Shown one piece after another: positions 4,451 to 62,134 of a stretch of DNA of 64,000 nucleotides. The stretch's first letter is position 1; every line of letters starts with the position of its first letter. The notes under the pieces are model-generated. The model did no database searches and was not told the origin of the DNA. It saw only the letters and a program-made list of their open reading frames with translations. Both the position numbers and the translations under genes were made by a program. This stretch comes from a phage: sequence record PV467749.1; one strand, written 5' to 3'.

Positions 4451-4981
4451 TTAATCGAGTATAGTAACTTCAATCAAACGAATTTCGATGAATTCGTTTT
4501 CAGTTTCCCATGATGAACCTAATTTCTTATTAAGTTCAGTTTTAACATCACTTTTAAATTTTCCCATAGTATTAGGAATAATTTGTTTGGTTAGTTTGTC
4601 ATAACCACAATAAAACATAGGTTTCTCCCTTCGAGATATTAGCTCAACAAAATCCTTTGGATATGCAGGTATATTATGCATCACTTCATGAATGCACTCA
4701 GTACTTGAATCTTGTACTTTGTACATTACATTAAGTTTACCTTTGAAAGTTCTAATCATATCAACAATAATACCTTTACCAGATTTAAGTAAAGTTCCAT
4801 TCTTTGTATGAGAACAATAGAATACCTCATCACCAATATTAGGATAGTACAAATTAAATTCTAATTCTTCCTTTGATGACTGACGTTGAAATTTCATTAC
4901 ACGTTCAGTATAGGTGGGGTAGTTCTTCATGTTCAAAAGAATATCTCTCTTAGTAAGTGTGATATAACTGGCATAGTCCAT
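4451..4981 (-). CDS. hypothetical protein (176 aa; start uncertain, alternative ATG at 4930)
   Basis: ORF track; overlaps methyltransferase 3' end by 49 nt unless the internal ATG at 4930 (MKNYPTY...) is used. Confidence 0.4.
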   Translation of the reverse strand: MDYASYITLTKRDILLNMKNYPTYTERVMKFQRQSSKEELEFNLYYPNIGDEVFYCSHTKNGTLLKSGKGIIVDMIRTFKGKLNVMYKVQDSSTECIHEVMHNIPAYPKDFVELISRREKPMFYCGYDKLTKQIIPNTMGKFKSDVKTELNKKLGSSWETENEFIEIRLIEVTILD

Positions 4982-6822
4982 CCATTCCCAAGCATTTTGT
5001 ATGCTTGTGTCTTACTAGACACTTTAAAGAAATCTACAGGAATACCCTGTAATTTACAACATTCTACTACACTTAAGTGTCTATAGTCAATATTTCTTTT
5101 ACCATTCTCCAATAGATATTGACGATTAATCGTTGGGTCACGAAACACCAACTGTCGTCTTGATTTATTAAAGTACTGGTTACAATCACCACCCTTAAAA
5201 TAGTTAGCATCTATACAGTACGAAGCGGTTCTGTCAGTGTACCAACCATCTTCAATGATATCTTGAAGTTTAGGGGCATTTGATAATGCAGGTGGTATAA
5301 AAAGCTTATCAGTACTGCACCAGTAGTATCTCTGCCTGAAGTGAGGCGTATAATGCTGGGAATTTATCAGTACTGGTGTCATCTCAAGAACACTATTAAT
5401 GTATTGCTTGAAATCTTCTTTCATCTTAACATTCTCAAAGAGAACTTTCAAGTTAGGATTTAAACTTTTTATGTGTTGGTAGATATCAACCATCGTGTGA
5501 AACAACATTCCACGTGGGTCATTTATACCACCCTGTTTACCAGCAACTGACCATGCTTGACAATTGTGAACAACTATATTATTTGCAGTGTACGTGTTAT
5601 CAACAGCAACTTCAAAATTATATACAGTTTTCCATTCTCCAGTATGAGTGCTAGTTTTTACACCTTTAACCCACGAATAATTTTTGTCATAAAAAGCTTC
5701 CTCTTTTTTCGGTTGGTCTTTTTTATATGACAAAACATAATAAGGTTTTTGGTTAACAACTCGATTTTCAATAACTTTGGTATTCTCTGGTTGAGTATAG
5801 CTTATATTGGAATGCCTTCCATATACGTTCATTATCAATTGTTGAATACCCAATACACAGTTTATTGATGTTGTAGTGAATTTATAACATCCACTATCAA
5901 TATGTCCATCAGCGTCAAAGTAACCATCAAGAAATGCTTTTTGGTTTTTTATGCATTCCGTGAATAGTTCTGGGTGTACTTGTTTGTTAGAAGCACCCTT
6001 TCCCATTTGTTCACAAAATTCAACCAGATCTTTTGAACATATATAAAATTTATATGAAGTTCTTTCTTTAACATAATTATATTTCATATTCATACCATCA
6101 AAACATGAAACTAATTCATTAAATTCGTCATGTGCACAACAGATGAAAACTCTATATTGGTAACTATTGGTTCTATTGTTACGTTTTACTTTATATGTCC
6201 ATCCATCACCCATAAAGCGACCCATAAAATACCAGAATTTTTCATCTTTCGTTGATTTGTTAGATTCAACTGATTTAACATTACACAGAAAATGGTCATA
6301 TGTCAAATCATGTGCCTCTACCCATTCTGGTTCAGAAAAATGACGTTCATATTGTCTAATGTTGTTATTCCACATAGACGTCATTTTTCTTGAATAAAAG
6401 GGATGATTATCGGTACATTCAATTGGAAGGTGACCTTGACCTGTAATAATACGAGTGGGAGCATTTTTAACACCAGTACTCAAAACTGGATGATATTTAC
6501 CAGTATGTGTCAGTACCATGTCACCAACTTGAATGTCTTTTATATCTTTATGACCTTTGTCTGTCATAATCATGGTTCCTGCTGGGAAGCATGGAAATCC
6601 ACCCATTAATAAATCTATTTTATCCCACTCAATATCCCATTCTCTCCATTTAGTTACATCACCCAATTGGGTGATATCAGGAAAGTTAGCTTGAGATTCA
6701 GCTATTGCGTACTTGTCAATTTCGGATGAATAATATTTTTCAACAGGGATACCAGCATCTTTTAATGCCATGTATCCAACACTCATCCCATTAAAAAGAG
6801 ATAGTACTCTGATAGGTTTCAT
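4933..6822 (-). CDS. DNA (cytosine-5)-methyltransferase precursor containing an intein (629 aa precursor; about 285 aa mature)
   Basis: Motif I FNGMSVG, motif IV GGFP|C..CQAWSVAGKQGG...DPRG interrupted after GGFP, motif VI LFENVK, motif X QAYKMLGNGW; AAAGGA SD before ATG. Confidence 0.85.
   Translation of the reverse strand: MKPIRVLSLFNGMSVGYMALKDAGIPVEKYYSSEIDKYAIAESQANFPDITQLGDVTKWREWDIEWDKIDLLMGGFPCFPAGTMIMTDKGHKDIKDIQVGDMVLTHTGKYHPVLSTGVKNAPTRIITGQGHLPIECTDNHPFYSRKMTSMWNNNIRQYERHFSEPEWVEAHDLTYDHFLCNVKSVESNKSTKDEKFWYFMGRFMGDGWTYKVKRNNRTNSYQYRVFICCAHDEFNELVSCFDGMNMKYNYVKERTSYKFYICSKDLVEFCEQMGKGASNKQVHPELFTECIKNQKAFLDGYFDADGHIDSGCYKFTTTSINCVLGIQQLIMNVYGRHSNISYTQPENTKVIENRVVNQKPYYVLSYKKDQPKKEEAFYDKNYSWVKGVKTSTHTGEWKTVYNFEVAVDNTYTANNIVVHNCQAWSVAGKQGGINDPRGMLFHTMVDIYQHIKSLNPNLKVLFENVKMKEDFKQYINSVLEMTPVLINSQHYTPHFRQRYYWCSTDKLFIPPALSNAPKLQDIIEDGWYTDRTASYCIDANYFKGGDCNQYFNKSRRQLVFRDPTINRQYLLENGKRNIDYRHLSVVECCKLQGIPVDFFKVSSKTQAYKMLGNGWTMPVISHLLREIFF
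5563..6591 (-). mobile_element. intein (343 aa) with LAGLIDADG homing-endonuclease domain, inserted at catalytic Cys of the C5-methyltransferase
   Basis: Starts CFPAGTMIMTD (block A), LTHT (block B), two LAGLIDADG-type motifs (FMGRFMGDGW, FLDGYFDADGHI), ends NNIVVHN followed by extein Cys of the PCQ motif. Confidence 0.8.
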
Positions 6823-6868: not shown

Positions 6869-6874
6869 TCTTAT

Positions 6875-21877: not shown

Positions 21878-21943
21878 GTTTTATATTATCCTTAAAAAAC
21901 TAGCACATATAATACTATTTACTACTTTTAAAAAACAATAAAA

Positions 21944-24583: not shown

Positions 24584-24646
24584 ATAAAAATCCTTTTTCT
24601 ATGTGAGTGATATAACGCCTCAAACAACATTATATCACATGTTTTT

Positions 24647-25165
24647 CTACCATTTCAAAAATTCATTTACATCTAGTTTATACTTCAAAGAATCAACCAT
24701 ATGCAAATCAATCAGGAACAAACAATACGAAGCCACTGAACTACCACGCCCAAGACCCCAAAAAATATTGTGCTCTTCCATATAATCAACTAACCAGATC
24801 ATACATCTTAAAAGCTTAGTCATGTTGTAATGTTCAAACAAATCAATCTCATACATTACACGTTCACGGGCTTCATCCGATGTACATTTCTGTAAAAAGT
24901 ACTCACGCAAGTTGATGTTATCGTACACTGGATCATAACGCCATAGCTCATGGTTTTTATCATGTTCTATTGTATAATCCAGCATACGCTGTTCTAAACC
25001 AAATTTTTTACAATTATCGTTAAATTTCAATCGTTCCGGTTCATCAATCTCCTGTAGCTGTAAGTACTGAATATCTGCACCACAGTTGATTGCATACACG
25101 ACTGCATTAAGGTTACATTTTACATCACCATTGGGACTTATAAATCTGTTTCCTTGTACTTTCAT
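24647..25165 (-). CDS. hypothetical protein with DnaE (Pol III alpha) PHP/palm-junction-like motif
   Basis: GLGRGSSVASYCLFLIDLHMVDSLKYKLDVNEFL resembles DnaE [34 protein letters not shown] (recalled from memory, by-eye alignment). Confidence 0.45.
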   Translation of the reverse strand: MKVQGNRFISPNGDVKCNLNAVVYAINCGADIQYLQLQEIDEPERLKFNDNCKKFGLEQRMLDYTIEHDKNHELWRYDPVYDNINLREYFLQKCTSDEARERVMYEIDLFEHYNMTKLLRCMIWLVDYMEEHNIFWGLGRGSSVASYCLFLIDLHMVDSLKYKLDVNEFLKW

Positions 25166-25436
25166 TTTTCTTCTTCTGATCCTCTTCGTTATCCGTTAAG
25201 TAAGAGTTCATGTCAAATATACATGGGTCTTGCTCATCATAGGAGGTTTTTTCTTTTTGTCCCTGACGAATCTCTAATTCAGCATAGCACTGATTCAGAA
25301 CGGTTTGCATGTTACCAACAATCATATCACTCATACCTGCTGCACGAGCAGACGTAATACGCATCGATTGTTCGTTAATTTTCAATTGTAACTCTTTCTC
25401 GGTCATGGTTGATGGATCAAAAAATGGATTGAACAT
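25125..25436 (-). CDS. hypothetical protein (103 aa)
   Basis: ORF track; overlaps downstream ORF by 41 nt in another frame. Confidence 0.4.
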   Translation of the reverse strand: MFNPFFDPSTMTEKELQLKINEQSMRITSARAAGMSDMIVGNMQTVLNQCYAELEIRQGQKEKTSYDEQDPCIFDMNSYLTDNEEDQKKKNESTRKQIYKSQW

Positions 25437-25437
25437 A

Positions 25438-27834
25438 TCATCCTCCTAAATTGCTGTTTTGTAATGAAATCAAAAATGTATCATGAACGTAGTTTTCGAA
25501 TTCATGTGCAAAGAATCCAAACTCAACTCCTGTGATTTCAAACTCAACACCAACCATCTTACCATGTTCATTGTTCTGAAGTAAAGTGTTAAAGAATGCT
25601 TCACCCTTTCCTGGTGCACAATATGCAACTGGAATGATTGGCATAAATTTCTTTTCAACTCCATTTTCTTCGTATGGGTGATTCATGAAGCGAGGAACAG
25701 TGTCAAGCATCTCATCAGAAATTCCTGGTATAGCATCTACATACAAACCACGGTTTTGTAAATCAGTTGGGTCTTTCACAAGGTTAGTTGTGTCTTCGCC
25801 AATTGCTGCAAAAATATTTTGACGCAAGCCAAATATTTCACCGAGTGTTCCGTTATCAATTTGCGTGTAACTTCTTGGATTCTTAGAAACCGACACCAAT
25901 GAACCTGCGGGTAAAACTTCACGGTATAATATATCATACTGCAAGTTACCTTGGTTGTCAAGTGCTGACATTACTTTATAGTTGCCCATTACCATTCTAA
26001 ATTTTCCATCAGGTATAGTTGCACCAGATTGGTTTATGATATTTTCCCTAAGTACTTTTTTAATATCACTCAACGTAGTGTAAGTATAGTTCTGACTCAA
26101 AAAGTTTTCTTTTAATAGAATACGTGGTACTTTTTGTAACCCGTATCTATCATCTGATTGACGATGGAAAGCTTGTTTTGTAAATGATGGTGTACTAATA
26201 CACTTAAACCATTCACGTTCAAAATAAACAGAAGGTACAATATGTGCACTTAAGTAGTTTTGTCCAAAACCACGTACAATTTTCAGTTTAAATAACTTGG
26301 ACGCAACACCACCTTCAGTGTCATATGCTTTGATGTTGAATTCTAATTTTATATCATCATTTGCACTGAAATCTAAACTTTTTGCATATGCCGTCCCGAC
26401 CAAGAACCCATCTGCGGTGAGGTCCAAACCATATTTGCGAATATCATCAGGCCCACCATCTAATACATAAGATACCTGATTAGTACTGGTAGTTTGTATT
26501 TGTGGATAAGTACTGTGACCGAAATATTCACCCACATGAATACTACCTAAATCACTATCAGTTGTGAAGTCTATTGAGTTTCCTTCTTCTGCGTTCACTA
26601 GAACACGGAACATCTTCTCTTCACCTATAATATTCTCACCTAAGCTTGAATCATAATATCCTAAATCAATCCAATCTGAACTTTTAAACACTGGCTTTGT
26701 TTCACCTAGATCATATTCACCAGAGATTACATATGGATATACAACGTTATCTTTCAACTGATACAAATGATTAGGTAAAGGTTTATCACCATCAGCGTAT
26801 ATACCATCTACATTGTCTGGACATACCCACATTTGATATGCTTTGAAACGTTGGTTTATAGCGAAGCGGTCAGTGTCATAACTATATGTACTCAAAATAT
26901 CAACAATTTCAACTTTGAAATATGCATCACATGCATCAGAGTCATATAGGAATGTTTGCAGAAATTGTCCATTTGGGTTGAAAACCAATCCTGAATCTAG
27001 TAACTCCCCAGAGCTAGTTTGAATATTAACCTTAATTTCTTTATTAATACCAAATACAGGCCATATATTATCAATAGGACGTAGGATTGCATAATCATCA
27101 GTAATGTGGCGAGCAGGAACTTCTGCTGGGGTCATATCGAGTAGACGATACGCTGGATAAAATACTCTAGGAGATAGGTCAGTTGATGTATCCGTTCCTA
27201 AAATAAATGGACGACGACGACCAAATCCCTGTACAAATAAAGTACTGTTGGAACCGTATTCAATATCACCAATACAATATAATTTGTCATCATCACCGAT
27301 TTCGATTCCAGGAGTAACCCACACTTCCTGACTATCATATTCAATTGTTACTTCATTTGAACCAATTTCACCACTAGGGGAAATGTTACCATAGTACATA
27401 ACATTTACTGCTTGAAGATAGAAGTTAATCTGTTCAGAGTTGTTAAATGTACCATCATCTTTACAATGCAATTTAATAAAATAAACATCTTCGGTATTAG
27501 TGCTTGCCGATAGATCAAATTGAGTTTTATCAATTTTACATTTGTGCTTACCATTAATCAACTTGTTACCAGTAATACCTGATGATATAGGTGTGAGATT
27601 AGATTCATCATTACCAACATACACTGCGTAGTGATCTTCTGGTTGAAATACTGCATCAGAACTATCCAAACCCTGAATAGTTAGAATCATCTCTAAGTAT
27701 TCGTTTTCATTAAGTATATAACTATCATCCGTTGTGGTTTCTTTGTTGATACTCAAACGCACAAGAATGTCTTGTCCTTCTTGTATATATCGAGCATCGG
27801 CTTTTATATCCCATCTAGGGGTAAAAGTTGTCAT
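25438..27834 (-). CDS. large protein (about 798 aa), probably late-expressed / structural
   Basis: ORF track 25438..27861; ATG at 27834 has GGAGA SD; T4-type late promoter TATAAATA lies about 40 nt upstream. Confidence 0.55.
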   Translation of the reverse strand: MTTFTPRWDIKADARYIQEGQDILVRLSINKETTTDDSYILNENEYLEMILTIQGLDSSDAVFQPEDHYAVYVGNDESNLTPISSGITGNKLINGKHKCKIDKTQFDLSASTNTEDVYFIKLHCKDDGTFNNSEQINFYLQAVNVMYYGNISPSGEIGSNEVTIEYDSQEVWVTPGIEIGDDDKLYCIGDIEYGSNSTLFVQGFGRRRPFILGTDTSTDLSPRVFYPAYRLLDMTPAEVPARHITDDYAILRPIDNIWPVFGINKEIKVNIQTSSGELLDSGLVFNPNGQFLQTFLYDSDACDAYFKVEIVDILSTYSYDTDRFAINQRFKAYQMWVCPDNVDGIYADGDKPLPNHLYQLKDNVVYPYVISGEYDLGETKPVFKSSDWIDLGYYDSSLGENIIGEEKMFRVLVNAEEGNSIDFTTDSDLGSIHVGEYFGHSTYPQIQTTSTNQVSYVLDGGPDDIRKYGLDLTADGFLVGTAYAKSLDFSANDDIKLEFNIKAYDTEGGVASKLFKLKIVRGFGQNYLSAHIVPSVYFEREWFKCISTPSFTKQAFHRQSDDRYGLQKVPRILLKENFLSQNYTYTTLSDIKKVLRENIINQSGATIPDGKFRMVMGNYKVMSALDNQGNLQYDILYREVLPAGSLVSVSKNPRSYTQIDNGTLGEIFGLRQNIFAAIGEDTTNLVKDPTDLQNRGLYVDAIPGISDEMLDTVPRFMNHPYEENGVEKKFMPIIPVAYCAPGKGEAFFNTLLQNNEHGKMVGVEFEITGVEFGFFAHEFENYVHDTFLISLQNSNLGG

Positions 27835-27872
27835 TATAATTCTCCATAGCCAAGCTACCATTATCTATAGAT

Positions 27873-27880
27873 TATTTATA
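27873..27880 (-). promoter_or_regulatory. T4-type late promoter core TATAAATA
   Basis: Exact TATAAATA on minus strand upstream of the large ORF; only exact occurrence found by eye in intergenic regions. Confidence 0.45.
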
Positions 27881-27922
27881 TAAAGGACAAGGAAGACCCA
27901 TAAAGGTCTTCCCTGTTTATAA

Positions 27923-29335
27923 TCAATCTTCAGTTTTTGGCGTGAAGTCAATCTTACGTAGTTCTTTCAACTCATCTTTATAGATGTTCCAAATCAAATC
28001 ATGATTCGACAGGAGATTGTTATATTCATCCATTAAATCCAAGTTATGTTGAATATCAGCTAGTACTGATTGATAATTGTCTTGGGTCCAACGATATGAT
28101 GGGAAGTTTACGATGCTTTGAATATTCTCATCGGTTGCTTCGATTTCAGTGTTTAATGATTTAACAAACTCAACCATTTCTGAACGGTTAGCAAAACCCT
28201 TAACCTTAGCAATCATATCATTATCAAAACATTCTTTGATTAGAATCTTATAACGTACTTCAGCAGCACAATCATCAAGTTTCTTCTCATAGCGTTTCAC
28301 ATAGTATTTGAAACGGAATTCAACAAAGTCCTTAATCAAATCCATTGTGTTATCATAGACTTTAACCTTACCATTCTCACCTAGAACAGTTAGGATTTGT
28401 GTCATCTTCTTATGAATGCCAAAGTATTCAATTACATCTTTCTCCACCCATTTAGCAGATGTTCCGCGTGGCAATTTGATTGTAATATCAATAACATCAG
28501 TACTATCATTATCATAATCACGAATATCACCATCATCGCTCATCTTAATGAGTTTCTCGATGAATTTCTCAATACTGTAGTTAGGTGGTAGACCTGTTAC
28601 TTTAACAGTACTGGCATCAATTACTTGTGCTTTACCATAGAACTCATATTTGTTTTCATCAAGCTTAGTTACGATATCACTTGCACCACATGAAACATAG
28701 TATGGAGTCATTTCTTTTAATGGTTTTTTATCAATAGCACGAATACAGTTATCAATAACATCTTCAATCTTATGTGGTAGAATTGTACTCTTATAACCTA
28801 CTGACATACTATCGTTACCAAACAAAGATAGTGGGATAATAGGTAAAAAGAAACTTGGTTCCATTGTAGTACCATCATAGTTCTCTTTCATTGGAATAAT
28901 GTCAGAGTCACGCAGTACTAACATTTCAGTACTTTTATTCTTTTTAACATAAGTATAACGAGCAGAAGCTGGAGTACTGTTTACTTGTGTACCAAAACCA
29001 CCACGTTTACCAATGAGTGGGTAGTTGTTTACGACTGGTGATGCTAGGTTCTGAAGAGTACCAGATGCAGATGCATCACCGTGTAGATAGATACCATCAC
29101 TAATCATTTTACCAGCACATGATACAGTTTTGATTTCACCACTAACTTTTGAGAGGGTGAAGATTGCTTTACGCTGTGAACTCTTAAGGCCATCAATCCC
29201 AGGGATTGCACGGTCTAGTGTGTACATTGAATATTCTAGTGATGTGGTATTCACATAATCAGAACTGTTATAATCTAGTAGAGTTAGTGTTTGGTTATCG
29301 ATGCTTTGATTTTCGGTTTTTTTACTTTTAGCCAT
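27923..29335 (-). CDS. 52: DNA topoisomerase II medium subunit (GyrA-like cleavage domain; T4 gp52 family)
   Basis: EYSMYTLDRAIPGIDGLKSSQRK matches the type II topoisomerase A-subunit N-terminal signature; 470 aa. Confidence 0.8.
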   Translation of the reverse strand: MAKSKKTENQSIDNQTLTLLDYNSSDYVNTTSLEYSMYTLDRAIPGIDGLKSSQRKAIFTLSKVSGEIKTVSCAGKMISDGIYLHGDASASGTLQNLASPVVNNYPLIGKRGGFGTQVNSTPASARYTYVKKNKSTEMLVLRDSDIIPMKENYDGTTMEPSFFLPIIPLSLFGNDSMSVGYKSTILPHKIEDVIDNCIRAIDKKPLKEMTPYYVSCGASDIVTKLDENKYEFYGKAQVIDASTVKVTGLPPNYSIEKFIEKLIKMSDDGDIRDYDNDSTDVIDITIKLPRGTSAKWVEKDVIEYFGIHKKMTQILTVLGENGKVKVYDNTMDLIKDFVEFRFKYYVKRYEKKLDDCAAEVRYKILIKECFDNDMIAKVKGFANRSEMVEFVKSLNTEIEATDENIQSIVNFPSYRWTQDNYQSVLADIQHNLDLMDEYNNLLSNHDLIWNIYKDELKELRKIDFTPKTED

Positions 29336-29385: not shown

Positions 29386-31350
29386 TTATTCCATCCAGTT
29401 CTTACGATCATCAGCACGTTTCTTGTTGAAAATCAAATCAAGAGTTTCACCAAGGCGACCATCATCTGTAATCGCTACTGCAACACTGTTAGTGAATGCA
29501 TCACGGAAGTTTGCTTTTTCTAACGTACCCAATCCTTTCGCACGGGTTGCTTTCCAACCTTTCCAATCATCTGGGTTGTATTCATGTACATCATGACCAT
29601 AGTAGTACTTGGATTCCTTACCTTTCTCTAGAATGATGAATGGTGTTTTGAATATATACACAAATGGATTCTCTGGGTCTTGGAATAGTTCAGGCCAGAA
29701 TTTGTATAGGAAGTTACATACTAAAGCACCAATGTTCTTTCCATCCTCATCTTCATCGGCACAGATATAAAGCTTACCATAGTTAAGGTCTGCTCTTTCC
29801 GCTTTTACACCAGGAATCAGGTTGATACTCGCCATTATATCATGCAATGCCATTGAATCCATTAATTCTTTGGTTTTCTCATTACCACTGACGTTCATAA
29901 TTTTACCACGCAATGGTAGAATACCATGAACTTTAGGATCACGAGCACTCGCCATGTTGGAAATAGCAGAATCACCCTCAGCAATTAGTAGGATGCATTT
30001 GGAACGATCCGTGCCTGTACTGTCCAGTAGTTTTGCAACTTTACCTTTCAGTAGTTTTTTAGCTAGACGGCGATCTTCTTCTGCATCTTTCTTGTTGGTA
30101 CGAGCAGCACAGCGTTCAAAAATTTCATCAATCCACTCTTTGTTCTTCTTGACTAATTCATCGAACCATTCAGAATTCATCGCTTGTTGAATTGGACGAA
30201 TAACGTTTTCGTTGGTTAGTTTTGATTTAATCTGTGAGTTGAATGATGGTGCTTTCATCGTTGTTACGTTATAAATCAACAGACCTTCTTCAATATCAGA
30301 GCGGTTAGGTTTCATCTTGCGTTTCTTTGATTCTTTCTCTAGAGCAGTTCCTACTCCTAATGAGAAGAATTTCTTGAATGTATCAAGATGTGTACCACCA
30401 TCAAATGCTGGGGCATTGTTAACCAAACCATGCATATGGAAGTTAGTGTTCATACCCGATACTGCATTAGGAACAATGTAGAAAGTACTGTTAAAGTTGA
30501 ATGATTCATCTTTAACGTTCAATTGCATCAGTTTAGATGCGTTGAATAGTGCTTTTTCAGTAGTTCCTTTAATTGCAATACGCTTACCGTTAAGGAAAAT
30601 CTTATAGGTAGGGTTAGCAGCAGACATTTCTTTCAAAATACTGTATAACAATTCGGTTGGCAGTTTACGGTTAGGAAATACCTCAGAACTCAGAGTGAAG
30701 CGAATTGTTGTTCCAGTCTTATCTGCTTGAACCTTACGAATAGTTGGTTCATGTACATGAAGTTCAGGAAACATAATAGTTCCTTCTTCGAACTTCTGAT
30801 TGAACTTATAAAAACCGTCATATCCGTCATTGCTACTTTGTGTTTTATACGGGCGACCTTGGCGATGGATTTCAAGTTCAGCTTTAGAACTTACAATCAT
30901 TGCAACTGAACCACCCAATCCATTCTGACCGATTGTTTCATCACGCTTCGAGTCATCAAAGTTGCGACCAGTTTTAGTTTCAGTCATTACCATTGTACAT
31001 AGATTTTTCTGATACTCAGGAACATAGTCAATTGGAATACCACGACCATTATCACTGATCTCAAAGGATAACTCTTCTTCATTGAAATCAACTTTGAGTA
31101 CTGGTTCTTTTGTGCCAGCTTTTTTAAATTCATCTAAGCTGTTATCGATAATTTCACGAGTAGCAGTTAGAATTGCAGGAACCCACTCAACGTTTTTAAC
31201 TTCATATCCAGACTCACCAAAGATCAGTACTTGACTTTCGTGAACAGAACGTGAACCCAGATACATCTCAGTACGTAAGCGAGCATGTTGATAATCGTTT
31301 AGACGTTGTACATCATGTTCCTGAAGAACAGCACTTTCTTTCTTAGCCAT
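29386..31350 (-). CDS. 39: DNA topoisomerase II large subunit (GyrB-like ATPase plus TOPRIM; T4 gp39 family, single polypeptide of 654 aa)
   Basis: GHKL motifs EIIDNSLDE, DNGRGIP, QNGLGGS; TOPRIM EGDSA. Confidence 0.85.
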   Translation of the reverse strand: MAKKESAVLQEHDVQRLNDYQHARLRTEMYLGSRSVHESQVLIFGESGYEVKNVEWVPAILTATREIIDNSLDEFKKAGTKEPVLKVDFNEEELSFEISDNGRGIPIDYVPEYQKNLCTMVMTETKTGRNFDDSKRDETIGQNGLGGSVAMIVSSKAELEIHRQGRPYKTQSSNDGYDGFYKFNQKFEEGTIMFPELHVHEPTIRKVQADKTGTTIRFTLSSEVFPNRKLPTELLYSILKEMSAANPTYKIFLNGKRIAIKGTTEKALFNASKLMQLNVKDESFNFNSTFYIVPNAVSGMNTNFHMHGLVNNAPAFDGGTHLDTFKKFFSLGVGTALEKESKKRKMKPNRSDIEEGLLIYNVTTMKAPSFNSQIKSKLTNENVIRPIQQAMNSEWFDELVKKNKEWIDEIFERCAARTNKKDAEEDRRLAKKLLKGKVAKLLDSTGTDRSKCILLIAEGDSAISNMASARDPKVHGILPLRGKIMNVSGNEKTKELMDSMALHDIMASINLIPGVKAERADLNYGKLYICADEDEDGKNIGALVCNFLYKFWPELFQDPENPFVYIFKTPFIILEKGKESKYYYGHDVHEYNPDDWKGWKATRAKGLGTLEKANFRDAFTNSVAVAITDDGRLGETLDLIFNKKRADDRKNWME

Positions 31351-31410
31351 TTGAATTCCTTTTTAATGTCTCTTTGTCATGCAACATTGTATCATCAATG
31401 CTTTGTTTGT

Positions 31411-31442
31411 CTCAAAAAAATATCGGGACATTAAATGCCCCG
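31411..31442 (-). terminator. intrinsic terminator (CGGGGCA-TTTAA-TGTCCCG plus U7)
   Basis: Stem at about 31424..31442; minus strand continues ATATTTTTTTGAG. Confidence 0.5.
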
Positions 31443-31449
31443 ACAATTA

Positions 31450-54967: not shown

Positions 54968-55945
54968 TCACCTGCGAATCAAAATTTTAGGAACTGACAG
55001 TAGTGGGTCATAGACTTTTCTTACTGCCGCATAGTCATAAGGAACTGGAACGATCTTAGGATGAATACAAACAACCAATCGCAACCACATGTAATTACCT
55101 TTAAAATTAAATGCTTGAATCCCATCTAACGCTTTAGGGAATCCATTTTCATCAATATCATTTTCGATATATTCTTTACCATCCAATTTAACAATAAACC
55201 ATTTATAGTTTTCGTTATCAGTTGGTGCGTTATTACACAAACATCCTTGTAATTGAATTCTACCAATGAATTTATCAAAGTACATTGCAATAGTACTAAG
55301 ACCATCAACTAATCCGTACTGCATTTGTGCAGGAAGGGGAGATGTTGCCATTATATCAAATTCACCAATAACGCCACGAGCGATTGGTTCATGATACAAG
55401 CGTTTGATGGTAGTCCATGCTGGGTTTTTATTAACAGATACTTCAATACTTGGCACAAACACAGGAGCAGCTTGGTCGGAAATGATCAATTCAGCAGAGG
55501 CTTCATAATCAAGACCAGTGTATAAGTACTGTGTAGGTTCAATCAAGGAACCATCCATTGTTACTTTAGTAATACTCCATCTATATTTTGAACCAGGACT
55601 AGTATCCTGAATTACACCAGCAGGAACAATACATCCATAATATACTTTTTTACTATTGCCTAATGTTTGTCTTGCTTGTCCACTTTCTGATAGCCATGAT
55701 GGTTTTTGTTTATCCAAAACTACATCGAATAATTTAGTATTGTTTCTAGCATCAAAAATCATGAATGTTAGATATTCGTTATCTTTTAGTAATGTATATT
55801 TTCCATCAGCGTTATGCACTGTGAATGATAAATTGTTATTTGCACCTCTGTATATTGTAAGTTTCTCATTGCTATATGGCATATTAAAATTGCCCAATGA
55901 TACTTCTTGGTTATAAGGGTACATAAACACGCCGTGATGAGCCAT
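54968..55945 (-). CDS. hypothetical protein (about 325 aa)
   Basis: ORF track 54968..56179; ATG at codon 79 (MAHHGVFMYPY...) has AAGGA SD; upstream extension overlaps a divergent plus-strand gene. Confidence 0.5.
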   Translation of the reverse strand: MAHHGVFMYPYNQEVSLGNFNMPYSNEKLTIYRGANNNLSFTVHNADGKYTLLKDNEYLTFMIFDARNNTKLFDVVLDKQKPSWLSESGQARQTLGNSKKVYYGCIVPAGVIQDTSPGSKYRWSITKVTMDGSLIEPTQYLYTGLDYEASAELIISDQAAPVFVPSIEVSVNKNPAWTTIKRLYHEPIARGVIGEFDIMATSPLPAQMQYGLVDGLSTIAMYFDKFIGRIQLQGCLCNNAPTDNENYKWFIVKLDGKEYIENDIDENGFPKALDGIQAFNFKGNYMWLRLVVCIHPKIVPVPYDYAAVRKVYDPLLSVPKILIRR

Positions 55946-55970
55946 AGTTTTTCCTTCCATAAATAATAGG

Positions 55971-55982
55971 TATAAATTTATA
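55971..55982. promoter_or_regulatory. palindromic TATAAATTTATA element in divergent intergenic region
   Basis: Perfect 12-bp palindrome giving TATAAATT (7/8 match to T4 late core TATAAATA) on both strands, between divergent genes 54968..55945 and 56003..56356. Confidence 0.3.
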
Positions 55983-56002
55983 CTAATATTTATGGAACTC
56001 AT

Positions 56003-56356
56003 ATGAATCAATATAATACTATTCCACCATTTATCACGGTAGTTCAGTGTGATGGTAAAACTTTCATTGGTATTATCAAGATAAAAAGTAAACAGTATAC
56101 TACTCTTTACTGCTTTGATGATATGGATGAACCAATGCAAGATGAATTGTTGGGTATAGCACATGATTGGTGGTGGCAAAGCAACAGGTCAATTCCAGTC
56201 TGTCTATTCTTCCAAGAAGAGATGGAGAAATTTGAACCTTACACACAGAGATTCGATACCCCTGCGGTGAATTTCGTTTGTGGTCCAGTAGTTTCTTTAA
56301 GTGATTTGCCACAAAAACGCATCAAGCGTCGTAATGTGGCTCTTAAGAAGAAGTAA
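56003..56356 (+). CDS. hypothetical protein (117 aa), plus-strand
   Basis: ORF track; ATG start; Trp-rich HDWWWQ and basic C-terminus; convergent with 56343..56981. Confidence 0.45.
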   Translation: MNQYNTIPPFITVVQCDGKTFIGIIKIKSKQYTTLYCFDDMDEPMQDELLGIAHDWWWQSNRSIPVCLFFQEEMEKFEPYTQRFDTPAVNFVCGPVVSLSDLPQKRIKRRNVALKKK

Positions 56357-61300: not shown

Positions 61301-61315
61301 CCATGAATACCTTTA

Positions 61316-62134
61316 TTAATTAGTTCGAGTATTATATTCGTACTCAAATGTATATACTAAATCTTTATCACAGTTTGGGTTACTTGCATCAAGGATATCA
61401 CTGTTAGTAATCATCCATTCAATATAGTTCAATGGAACAGTTTCCATTGGTTCGCCTTTGTGTTTACCAAATGGCATGAATTTATAACGCATTGGTGTAT
61501 TACAGAATGTTACTATTTGTTCACCAATGTCACCATTAGGGTCAATATGACCACGTTCAATAGCAACTTCAATCAATTTGATTAGAACTTGGTAACACAT
61601 GAATACGTCATCTTTTGCTGCGTGAGCATTCACTGCACGATGTACGTCACGATAGCAACCAAATTTATACCACAAATAACTTAGAGTTAAGTTTTTGAAT
61701 TCAGTGTCTTCTGCAAACATCTTCTTAGCTAAACGAAGAGTACAAATCCATTTATCTTCATCGAGCAAGTACTGTGAAACTGAGTTACGATATTTATATT
61801 CGTTATCTACCATCATTCGGCGGTCAAATTGAACGTTGTGTCCAATAAAATAATCACGACAGCCCATGAGTGCGTCGATGTTTTCTAAGTCATCTTTATA
61901 ACCAATGCAGTTTGCTACATCTTCAGTACTGATAAAATGCACAGCACTTGCTTCTGGTGGTATATCTTTTAGTGGTTTATAACGCAAAGTGTAGTTATCA
62001 ATAGTATCAATATTCTCATGTGCACCGTGAGGATATGAAATACTAAATTCAATAATATCATCTTCACTTTCTACACCAGTCGTTTCGGTGTCTAGTACTG
62101 ATACGTTTGATAGAAACTCATCTAATTTTGTCAT
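61316..62134 (-). CDS. DnaQ-like DEDDh 3'-5' exonuclease with C-terminal FGKHKG-containing domain
   Basis: Exo I LDTETTG, Exo II HNVQFD, Exo III HRAVNAHAAKDD; C-terminal MPFGKHKGEPMETVPLNYIEW. Confidence 0.65.
   Translation of the reverse strand: MTKLDEFLSNVSVLDTETTGVESEDDIIEFSISYPHGAHENIDTIDNYTLRYKPLKDIPPEASAVHFISTEDVANCIGYKDDLENIDALMGCRDYFIGHNVQFDRRMMVDNEYKYRNSVSQYLLDEDKWICTLRLAKKMFAEDTEFKNLTLSYLWYKFGCYRDVHRAVNAHAAKDDVFMCYQVLIKLIEVAIERGHIDPNGDIGEQIVTFCNTPMRYKFMPFGKHKGEPMETVPLNYIEWMITNSDILDASNPNCDKDLVYTFEYEYNTRTN

Follow-up and report, generated by a model that had tools for sequence, protein, structure and literature searches.

A probable minor virion protein with a predicted beta-sandwich array and 2H-like domain, encoded behind the topoisomerase genes of a RaK2-like jumbo coliphage

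A 798-aa protein encoded in phage record PV467749.1 is likely to be a minor virion component of a RaK2-like (Asteriusvirus-type) jumbo coliphage, namely a late-transcribed, modular, surface-exposed accessory protein. The window analyzed, the whole stretch of 64,000 nucleotides, shares about 99.8% identity with the RaK2-like jumbo coliphage WPEC3. The finding is largely known in its parts, as the protein family is catalogued, homologues have been found in virions, the late motif is published, and the scattering of structural genes across the genomes of such phages has already been described (PMC7247149, PMC5259590). New here is the predicted architecture, in which approximately 520 residues of beta-sandwich domains would be followed by a compact C-terminal 2H-phosphoesterase fold.

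The gene, its late promoter element and its neighbors

An earlier note, made from the sequence alone, had described an ORF of about 798 aa, rich in Gly, Asp, Asn and Tyr, with a Shine-Dalgarno-preceded ATG about 40 nt downstream of an exact T4 late-promoter core, lying directly downstream of the topoisomerase genes. All of these observations were borne out, as the following features show; the location of the gene on the minus strand had not been stated.

31421-31445: terminator, preceding the topoisomerase promoter
31386..31415, minus strand: sigma-70-like promoter (TTGAGA-18 nt-TG-extended TACAAT) ahead of the topoisomerase genes
29386..31350, minus strand: topoisomerase II large subunit (T4 gp39-like)
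27923..29335, minus strand: topoisomerase II medium subunit (T4 gp52-like), the upstream neighbor
27887..27916, minus strand: strong hairpin resembling a terminator (13 pairs, -23 kcal/mol, z = -4.9), at the end of the topoisomerase unit
27873..27880, minus strand: TATAAATA, T4-type late-promoter-like element, 38 nt before the ATG; its clade-conserved part is [ACG]TAAATA
27842..27845, minus strand: Shine-Dalgarno GGAG, 7 nt before the ATG
25438..27834, minus strand: CDS of the 798-aa protein, stop codon included (90.0 kDa, pI 4.6)
25125..25436, minus strand: 103-aa ORF (phrog_15348, function unassigned), beginning 1 nt past the stop codon of the 798-aa CDS
24647..25165, minus strand: truncated PolIII-alpha-like protein (172 aa, PF07733), overlapping the 103-aa ORF by 41 nt
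24629..24658, minus strand: site resembling a middle-type promoter (TGAAAT-N17-TATAAT), at the head of the next transcription unit

The automatic ORF call (25438..27861) gave 807 aa and was revised to 798 aa via the start preceded by a ribosome-binding site, the ATG at 27834-27832 on the minus strand, which is also the start annotated in WPEC3, 121Q, RaK2, GAP32 and CBB. The longer start (ATG at 27861) was dropped, as no ribosome-binding site precedes it and the promoter element is just 11 nt away; it is also contradicted by the relatives, all of which begin at the MTTF/MANF position. The 798-aa protein contains 8.4% D, 7.8% G, 6.4% N and 5.8% Y.

The exact octamer TATAAATA is under-represented, with 2 copies in the window (the second inside a CDS) against approximately 8 expected from shuffles. 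Enrichment of the exact octamer was therefore discarded as evidence and the relaxed heptamer [ACG]TAAATA, which is the published consensus for late promoters in the RaK2-like group (PMC5259590), was taken instead. This occurs 20 times on the coding strand of the window and twice on the other. Twelve of the 20 coding-strand copies sit 15–65 nt 5' of start codons, where 1.5 would be expected (binomial p = 3e-9), an 8-fold, strand-specific enrichment accompanied by depletion elsewhere in the window; for permuted heptamers, used as a control, just 2–25% fall in these upstream windows. The motif also precedes the homologue of the 798-aa gene, or its operon, in 14/14 related genomes and contigs. It lies 24–40 nt before the ATG in 121Q, RaK2, CBB, GAP32, fHe-Yen9-04, Hallingskeid, SE_PL, EJP2 and pEa_SNUABM_47, where it is kept despite diverged flanking sequence, and it is found 5' of the homologue in three remote metagenomic relatives and, in a Vibrio phage, ahead of a two-gene operon containing the homologue.

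A gp55-like late sigma factor with 75.6% identity to CBB_244, a type of sigma related to cyanophage gp55, is encoded by WPEC5 and other close relatives; its gene lies outside the window, so that the evidence for it comes from relatives with 99% identity over the window region. From the conserved motif we infer late timing for the 798-aa gene. The CBB paper gives no late promoter for the orthologue CBB_326, and our literature search found no transcriptome of the RaK2-like group. As the CBB authors did not find homologues of gp33 and gp45, coupling of late transcription to replication via the sliding clamp is unproven.

The weak T-tail of the hairpin at 27887..27916 extends into the late promoter element. 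A hairpin occupies this junction in the 10 isolated-phage relatives of the RaK2-like group, and the CBB paper lists an equivalent terminator, Torf325; of the promoters given there, Porf_324 has the same position as that of the topoisomerase genes, and the TGAAAT-N17-TATAAT site matches "promoter 1" Porf_329. The 103-aa ORF is probably co-transcribed with the 798-aa gene. Linkage of the PolIII-alpha fragment to this locus is kept in all relatives, and the order topoisomerase, 798-aa gene, small ORF, truncated PolIII-alpha is kept far beyond the close ones. Alternatively, this invariant location among replication genes may point to a DNA-related function of the protein.

The view that the gene is embedded in an otherwise early/middle block stood in part. 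Its neighbors are of topoisomerase and PolIII-alpha type, but at least four other units led by the late motif lie in the window, and the phAPEC6 counterparts of their proteins are in the virion proteome (gp150c/149c, gp162c/161c and gp167c, matched by gene order and mass).

Family membership and virion association

The protein is 99.9% identical to a WPEC3 protein annotated "virion structural protein" and matches phrog_13911, of the same description, over residues 1–797 of 798 (E = 0, 1364 bits). Ninety-five homologues were found, most at 99–100% query coverage, and the position of the gene, between the topoisomerase II genes and the PolIII-alpha fragment, is that of the family. Searches for homology to replication enzymes (Pfam and PDB sequence search) gave none, in agreement with the earlier reading that recognizable enzymatic motifs are lacking.

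Three homologues have been detected in purified virions by mass spectrometry (MS): RaK2 gp160 with 6 peptides (8.1% coverage), phAPEC6 gp158c with 9 peptides (17.1% coverage), and GAP32_321 (gp321; CBB paper Table S1). The CBB orthologue CBB_326 was not detected in the CBB authors' own virion MS. The phAPEC6 list also holds proteins that are clearly non-structural (the adjacent topoisomerase subunit, SSB, a RecA-like protein and thymidylate synthase), and thus detection by virion MS alone does not prove a structural role. Taken with the phrog_13911 match, the conserved motif and the gp55-like sigma, the presence of homologues in three virions supports the earlier suggestion of a late, probably structural or host-interaction protein.

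Predicted domain architecture

A structure model of the full-length protein (pLDDT 88.7) agreed with the expectation of a beta-rich protein for residues 1–520 and suggested three parts.

27322..27834, minus strand: residues 1–171, predicted N-terminal beta-sandwich domain, found in the RaK2-like group only; boundary approximate
26275..27321, minus strand: residues 172–520, predicted beta-sandwich array (Ig-, cadherin-, Calx-beta- and cohesin-like)
25441..26274, minus strand: residues 521–798, predicted C-terminal domain, compact and alpha/beta, whose fold resembles that of 2H phosphoesterases; conservation in the protein is highest here

Remote homologues begin at the position corresponding to residue 172 (motif WVTP). 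ORF052 of the Vibrio phage, the ORF upstream of the homologue there, was considered as a detached counterpart of residues 1–171 and ruled out, having no similarity. Foldseek searches with the full model gave mostly generic cadherin-like and Ig-like arrays at TM-scores near 0.1, which are informative on domain type alone. Pfam searches with the whole protein and with each of the three parts found no family, even at E <= 1, and PDB sequence and profile searches gave nothing or chance matches only. In remote homologues, He_PIG Ig domains and carbohydrate-binding CBM_5_12 modules stand N-terminal to the C-terminal domain; the argument from these modules is drawn from remote relatives only, the window protein itself having no Pfam domain.

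Modeled alone, the C-terminal domain gave a pLDDT of 87 and a pTM of 0.86. Against viral models, Foldseek matched it to phage 2'-5' RNA ligases and cyclic phosphodiesterases (probability 1.0), as well as to large phage proteins named "Ig" with the same C-terminal domain. The predicted fold is two-lobed alpha+beta with internal pseudo-twofold symmetry, as in 2H proteins, and its elements run b1-a1-b2-a2-b3-b4-a3-b5-a4-b6-b7, which we take to be the order of LigT. Both H-x-T/S motifs are absent from the domain, with no His or Thr/Ser pair on b2 (RILLKEN) or b5 (IIPVAYC), whose LLKEN and IPVAY strands we equated with the 2H motif strands from element order. H719 is the only His invariant in the close family, and most remote members have Asn, Ser or Gln in its place, so that no His is conserved across the wider family of the domain. 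Invariant polar residues include R540, R558, D561, K575, N577, N618, D626, Y633, E639, D711 and Y738. As an hhalign comparison of the C-terminal family with a ThpR/LigT alignment (the ThpR alignment being shallow, at >=73% identity) gave a probability of ~0, the 2H relationship is at the level of fold only, and as both catalytic His-x-Thr/Ser motifs are missing, a canonical 2H mechanism is excluded.

One reading of this domain is a repurposed 2H fold, in which the dyads would be replaced by K575 and N577 (b2), Y738 (b5), R540, R558, D561 and others, giving either a new module, displayed on a virion protein, that binds an anionic glycan or a nucleotide, or a particle-borne non-canonical phosphodiesterase. 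We regard this as improbable; if true, the combination of Ig-like array and 2H-like domain would be an undescribed class of virion protein in a broad jumbo-phage clade. The combination recurs in other large phages, and we found no earlier description of it in the literature.

Proposed role, alternatives and comparison with known systems

Our best guess is an adhesion or decoration protein exposed on the particle surface. Middle-type transcripts over both topoisomerase genes would stop, at least in part, at the 27887-27916 hairpin. Late in infection, host RNA polymerase with the phage gp55-like sigma would start a few bases downstream of TATAAATA, and the late transcript would cover the 798-aa gene and probably also the two tightly coupled small genes behind it. 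The acidic N-terminal region of approximately 520 residues would form a string of beta-sandwiches of the type seen on phage exteriors and cell-surface adhesins, and the 278-residue C-terminal domain a two-lobed 2H fold with its catalytic motifs lost. The Ig-like and carbohydrate-binding-type modules may then bind weakly to glycans on the host surface or serve as particle decoration, with the C-terminal domain acting as virion anchor or ligand-binding head. We hold a surface-exposed, low-copy accessory role with moderate confidence.

It is unlikely that the protein is instead a late non-structural one, such as a fiber or capsid assembly factor or a DNA-associated protein, that merely co-purifies with virions. 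Such a reading would account for the topoisomerase subunit and other replication proteins on the phAPEC6 virion list, for the missing detection in CBB virions, and for a linkage to topoisomerase II and the PolIII-alpha fragment that is kept even in very distant relatives. However, detection was independent in three phages by three laboratories, the 9 peptides in phAPEC6 compare with 2–4 for obvious contaminants, and the architecture is unlike that of any replication factor. Lower still is the probability we give to a primary receptor-binding protein, a tail fiber or tailspike setting host range. Although the protein is large, beta-rich and presumably expressed late, with relatives carrying carbohydrate-binding modules, its divergence from relatives is near-uniform along its length with no mosaic breakpoint, and length and synteny are kept in phages infecting Escherichia, Klebsiella, Erwinia, Yersinia, Xanthomonas and Vibrio. 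No resemblance to beta-helix tailspikes or fiber folds was seen, and the known fibers lie in separate clusters (RaK2 ORF526-534; phAPEC6 gp248, gp256 and gp314).

We also consider it very unlikely, only slightly less so than a receptor-binding role, that this is an internal head protein ejected with the DNA, whose 2H-like domain binds or cleaves a nucleotide signal in the cell as a virion-borne counter-defence like Acb1. The C-terminal fold is that of 2H phosphodiesterases including Acb1 and the poxvirus cGAMP phosphodiesterase, many polar residues of the domain are invariant, and in phAPEC6 there is an inner body, along with many head proteins that carry no assignment. Against this, both H-x-T/S motifs are missing, no His is conserved family-wide and there is no ThpR/LigT profile similarity. 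Modules of the Ig-like, cadherin-like and CBM5/12 types typically occur in extracellular proteins, and a separate Acb1 is already encoded by at least one RaK2-like phage (fHe-Yen9-04). Residues 17–20 form a conserved I-x-E-G, which in our view resembles a T4 prohead-protease site and would also fit an ejected protein. Its use as a protease site or capsid-targeting signal was judged unlikely, as it lies inside a confidently folded beta-sandwich, in a domain absent from remote homologues.

Approximately 83% of genes in RaK2-like phages have no known function. The predicted fold, an Ig-like array with a catalytically dead 2H-like domain, may offer a handle for placing a conserved virion protein in cryo-EM maps; we found no cryo-EM assignment of the 798-aa protein or its homologues in the literature, and the fEgEco12 paper added nothing on this gene. 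The junction of terminator and late promoter after the topoisomerase genes is kept from coliphages to marine and metagenomic relatives, and is thereby well suited to mapping where late transcripts start in RaK2-like phages.

Among known systems, the closest are RaK2 gp160, GAP32_321, phAPEC6 gp158c and 121Q gp54, which are full-length orthologues of equal length (45–80% identity) with the same post-topoisomerase position and the same junction of terminator and late motif; there is no essential difference from this family (phrog_13911), of which the window protein is a member. T4 late promoters, which are read by RNA polymerase with gp55, the co-activator gp33 and the gp45 clamp, have the same octamer at about -10, need no -35 element, and are likewise found before a virion gene in a lineage with a gp55-like sigma, but the conserved core is shorter in the RaK2-like clade ([ACG]TAAATA). 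With the 2H superfamily (LigT/ThpR, Usb1, the AKAP18 central domain, CPDase and Acb1) the predicted fold is held in common, whereas both H-x-T/S motifs, a conserved His and detectable sequence-profile similarity are lacking; typical 2H enzymes are also approximately 100 residues smaller, the window domain having an insertion between a3 and b5. T4 Hoc consists of tandem Ig-like domains and a C-terminal capsid-binding domain, and is present at one copy per hexamer. Like Hoc, the window protein appears to be a dispensable-looking late accessory protein with an Ig-like string and one distinct, more conserved C-terminal domain, but it is much larger, and Hoc did not appear in the top hits by sequence or by fold. 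The low to moderate MS coverage of its homologues (8–17%) suggests that, unlike Hoc, it is present at low copy number.

Gene start, late-promoter motif and neighboring genes

The region was 99.8% identical to that of Escherichia phage WPEC3, at least 99% identical to those of BF17, WPEC5, EC.P1, vB_Ec-M-J, fEgEco12, Ecwhy_1 and CMSTMSU, 98.9% to Turkey3, 98.1% to TH47 and ~78% to the 121Q, PBECO4 and phAPEC6 group. These relatives are RaK2-like jumbo myoviruses of roughly 350–385 kb. An earlier note had described an exact late-promoter core ~40 nt before a Shine-Dalgarno-preceded ATG, opening an ORF of about 798 aa directly downstream of the topoisomerase genes, and this arrangement was confirmed.

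Features at the locus
31445-31421 (-): terminator before the topoisomerase genes
31415-31386 (-): sigma-70-like promoter, TG-extended, before the topoisomerase genes
29386..31350 (-): topoisomerase II large subunit gene, upstream of the hairpin
27923..29335 (-): topoisomerase II medium subunit gene, upstream of the hairpin
27916-27887 (-): GC-rich 13-bp hairpin, -23 kcal/mol, z = -4.9 against shuffles
27880-27873 (-): TATAAATA, 38 nt 5' of the 798-aa ATG
27845-27842 (-): Shine-Dalgarno GGAG, 7 nt from the ATG
27834-27832 (-): ATG of the 798-aa protein, GGAG in front at 7-nt spacing
25438..27861 (-): ORF by mechanical call, 807 aa
24647..25165 (-): truncated PolIII-alpha-like protein, 172 aa (PF07733, E = 6e-9)
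24658-24629 (-): TGAAAT-N17-TATAAT site, start of the next unit

The upstream ATG of the 807-aa call was rejected as a start, as it has no ribosome-binding site and lies merely 11 nt past the promoter-like element. The weak T-tail of the hairpin extends into TATAAATA. A 103-aa ORF begins 1 nt past the stop codon of the 798-aa gene and overlaps the truncated PolIII-alpha-like gene, which is probably on the same late transcript. This truncated gene always lies two genes 3' of the 798-aa gene, including in remote metagenomic relatives and a Vibrio jumbo phage, and its truncation was also remarked on by the CBB authors (PMC5259590). In RaK2 (locus L002, 2796-4505) a homing endonuclease gene lies between the two topoisomerase subunit genes, an insertion missing in the window, 121Q, GAP32 and CBB.

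The late consensus of this phage group is already known: ATAAATA (first base A, C or G) followed by A/T-rich sequence, located 5' of structural genes in CBB and GAP32 (PMC5259590). Exact TATAAATA was not enriched (2 copies in 64 kb, ~8 expected). The relaxed form [ACG]TAAATA occurred 20 times on the coding strand and twice on the opposite strand. With WPEC3 gene starts mapped onto the window, 12 of the 20 lay 15–65 nt before a start codon, a zone comprising 7.6% of positions (expected 1.5, binomial p = 3e-9). Twelve composition-matched permutations of the motif had 2–25% of their copies in this zone and were overall commoner than [ACG]TAAATA. Such general avoidance, combined with concentration before genes, is what marks a functional signal.

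Several motif-led genes matched phAPEC6 virion proteins by gene order and mass (gp150c/gp149c; gp158c, the counterpart of the 798-aa gene; the gp163c-gp162c-gp161c unit; gp167c), indicating that the "replication block" is interleaved with small late units. The gene is placed as the earlier note had it, but the surrounding block is not purely early/middle.

The 11 further [ACG]TAAATA copies, 22–59 nt before start codons, are at 21916, 34380, 36378/36401, 47243, 49561, 50294 and 51464 (-) and at 6872, 8404 and 10183. The second exact TATAAATA (61791-61798, -) lies within CDS 61315..62134, annotated as a DNA polymerase exonuclease subunit, and no start codon follows it. An ATAAATA at 55987-55993 (-), followed by GGAAGG and, ~41 nt downstream, an ATG, lies within CDS 54968..56164 (a virion structural protein in the WPEC3 annotation) and could be an internal late promoter or reflect a mis-set start codon.

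Sequence comparison argues for the promoter more strongly still than these counts. The spacer after the topoisomerase genes has diverged in sequence, yet a GC-rich hairpin and T-run followed by [AG]TAAATA ~24–40 nt before the ATG were present in 9/9 relatives (121Q, RaK2, CBB, GAP32, fHe-Yen9-04, Hallingskeid, SE_PL, EJP2 and pEa_SNUABM_47). Three remote metagenomic relatives, recognisable via the C-terminal domain only, have ATAAATA 24–26 nt before the ATG, and in Vibrio phage 2.275.O the motif lies 5' of a two-gene operon whose last gene is the homolog. The CBB authors' late-promoter list is without CBB_326, the CBB ortholog (PMC5259590); the late motif is nonetheless present before it. Close relatives of the window phage encode a homolog of CBB_244 ("sigma factor for late transcription"; 75.6% identity in WPEC5), whose relatives include the cyanophage late sigma gp55. 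A literature search found no transcriptome of any phage in the RaK2-like group; we infer late timing for the 798-aa gene from its sequence context.

One further gene in the window was found to contain an intein:

4933..6822 (-): C5 cytosine DNA methyltransferase (Dcm-like), 629 aa, intein-interrupted

Its catalytic PC motif is split (GGFPC/FPAGT...VVHN/CQAWS) by a ~343-aa intein with a LAGLIDADG homing endonuclease, and Pfam identified DNA_methylase, Hint_2, LAGLIDADG_3 and Intein_splicing. WPEC3, otherwise 98–99% identical, is without this insertion (Dcm of 286 aa), the window having ~1027 extra bases at roughly 5563-6589.

Virion association and possible role

WPEC3 annotates the gene as "virion structural protein", and the match to phrog_13911, with the same description, spans the 798-aa protein end to end. 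Searches with this protein found no Pfam family and no sequence relative in the PDB. Homologs were detected by mass spectrometry in purified particles of three phages in three independent studies: RaK2 gp160 (87.7 kDa, 6 peptides, 8.1% coverage; PMC3622015, supplementary table), phAPEC6 gp158c (90.3 kDa, 9 peptides, 17.1% coverage; PMC7247149, Table 1) and GAP32_321 (Table S1 of the CBB paper, PMC5259590). CBB_326 was undetected in CBB's own virion mass spectrometry (PMC5259590). The checks proposed in the earlier note are largely in the literature, as virion proteomics of three relatives and a late-promoter consensus, and its description of the protein as late and probably structural or host-interacting is supported. 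The peptide coverage values point to a minor virion component. The best-supported reading is that of a late-expressed, low-copy virion protein. Ig-like, cadherin-like and CBM-type modules, combined with an acidic pI (4.3 for residues 1-520), are typical of proteins at the surface of phage particles or cells.

The phAPEC6 virion list also includes the topoisomerase II medium subunit gp159c, SSB, a RecA-like protein, thymidylate synthase and a PhoH-like protein (PMC7247149, Table 1). The first four of these show that such mass spectrometry lists include proteins that accompany the DNA or are co-purified; the alternatives are that these jumbo phages package DNA-bound proteins or that the preparations were contaminated. 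We rate lower than a low-copy virion protein both a late non-structural protein co-purifying with virions and an internal or ejected protein whose 2H-like domain binds nucleotides. A receptor-binding fiber is also rated lower: divergence is nearly uniform along the protein without mosaic breakpoints, and its conservation extends over phages of many host genera, both of which speak against a primary host-range determinant.

For the low-copy virion protein, the C-terminal domain (residues 521-798) is the most conserved part (mean identity 56% versus 44% for the rest) and could either anchor it in the particle or act as a binding head. Unexplained hair-like fibers and small decoration densities have been described on the capsid, collar and distal tail of phAPEC6 and CBB, and the protein might account for one of the low-copy features among these.

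Predicted fold and spread of the C-terminal domain

The AlphaFold2 model of the full-length protein, built on a 52-sequence alignment, had a mean pLDDT of 88.7 and a pTM of 0.50, the latter as expected for predicted beads on a string. A beta-sandwich array and a 2H-like domain were predicted. The 2H-type matches of the full model are attributable to the C-terminal alpha/beta region only. Modeled alone, residues 521-798 gave a single compact domain (pLDDT 87, pTM 0.86) with the predicted element order b1-a1-b2-a2-b3-b4-a3-(insert)-b5-a4-b6-b7, which is also that of LigT.

Foldseek comparison of the C-terminal domain with predicted viral structures gave three groups of matches: the K64-1 ortholog (TM 0.82); several large phage proteins of 640–1250 aa at 12–22% identity, some named "Ig" and one from Agrobacterium phage Atu_ph07; and stand-alone phage 2'-5' RNA ligases and cyclic phosphodiesterases (probability 1.0, target-normalised TM 0.53–0.62). 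Acb1 proteins matched more weakly (probability 0.66–0.93, TM 0.44–0.55).

When all 1.84 billion cluster representatives were searched with a profile, no more than 47 proteins reached E <= 1e-3; the family is small and confined to phages. The 20 best matches that span the whole domain have it at the C-terminus of proteins of ~540–1010 aa, the one exception in size being a 270-aa protein, hardly more than the domain. Pfam placed He_PIG Ig domains immediately N-terminal of the domain in remote members and, in several, CBM_5_12 carbohydrate-binding modules farther upstream. Remote N-termini (MAHWVTP...) align with residue 172 (WVTP) of the window protein, which makes residues 1-171 an extension particular to RaK2-like phages. 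Orthologs in Erwinia phages pEa_SNUABM_12, _19, _47, _49 and _50 (locus L014; proteins P0045, P0071, P0086 and P0089) are ~1010–1025 aa, with a ~220-aa insertion that splits the tblastn match in two.

The genomic neighborhood is conserved to a remarkable degree across the family. The Vibrio phage and three remote metagenomic contigs all have the homolog close to the truncated PolIII-alpha gene, and a GroES-like or clamp-loader gene is also nearby in contigs reaching far enough; in the Vibrio phage and 2/3 contigs the homolog comes after topoisomerase II, and a small ORF precedes the PolIII-alpha gene.

Little about the gene itself is new: it belongs to a family already catalogued, and deposited genomes nearly match that of its phage. 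This analysis adds the predicted fold, in which a beta-sandwich array is joined to a 2H-like domain that is catalytically degenerate, the finding that other large phages share this architecture, and the depth to which gene order and the terminator and late-motif junction are conserved.

2H phosphoesterases are defined by two H-x-T/S motifs, carried by strands b2 and b5. H719 is the sole histidine in the C-terminal domain that close relatives share without exception; it sits in a loop, and most remote members (P0102-P0111) have Asn, Ser or Gln instead, whereas P0100 and P0101 keep the histidine. An HDTF close to the end of the window protein is not conserved. A profile of the domain found nothing relevant in the PDB, and hhalign detected no similarity to a ThpR/LigT alignment (probability ~0). 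Conserved family-wide are R540, R558, D561, G565, K575, N577, G617, N618, D626, Y633, Y637, E639, D711, Y738 and G742. Carrying RILLKEN on b2 and IIPVAYC on b5 in place of the H-x-T/S motifs of 2H phosphoesterases, the domain is not a 2H-family enzyme, at least by the canonical mechanism.
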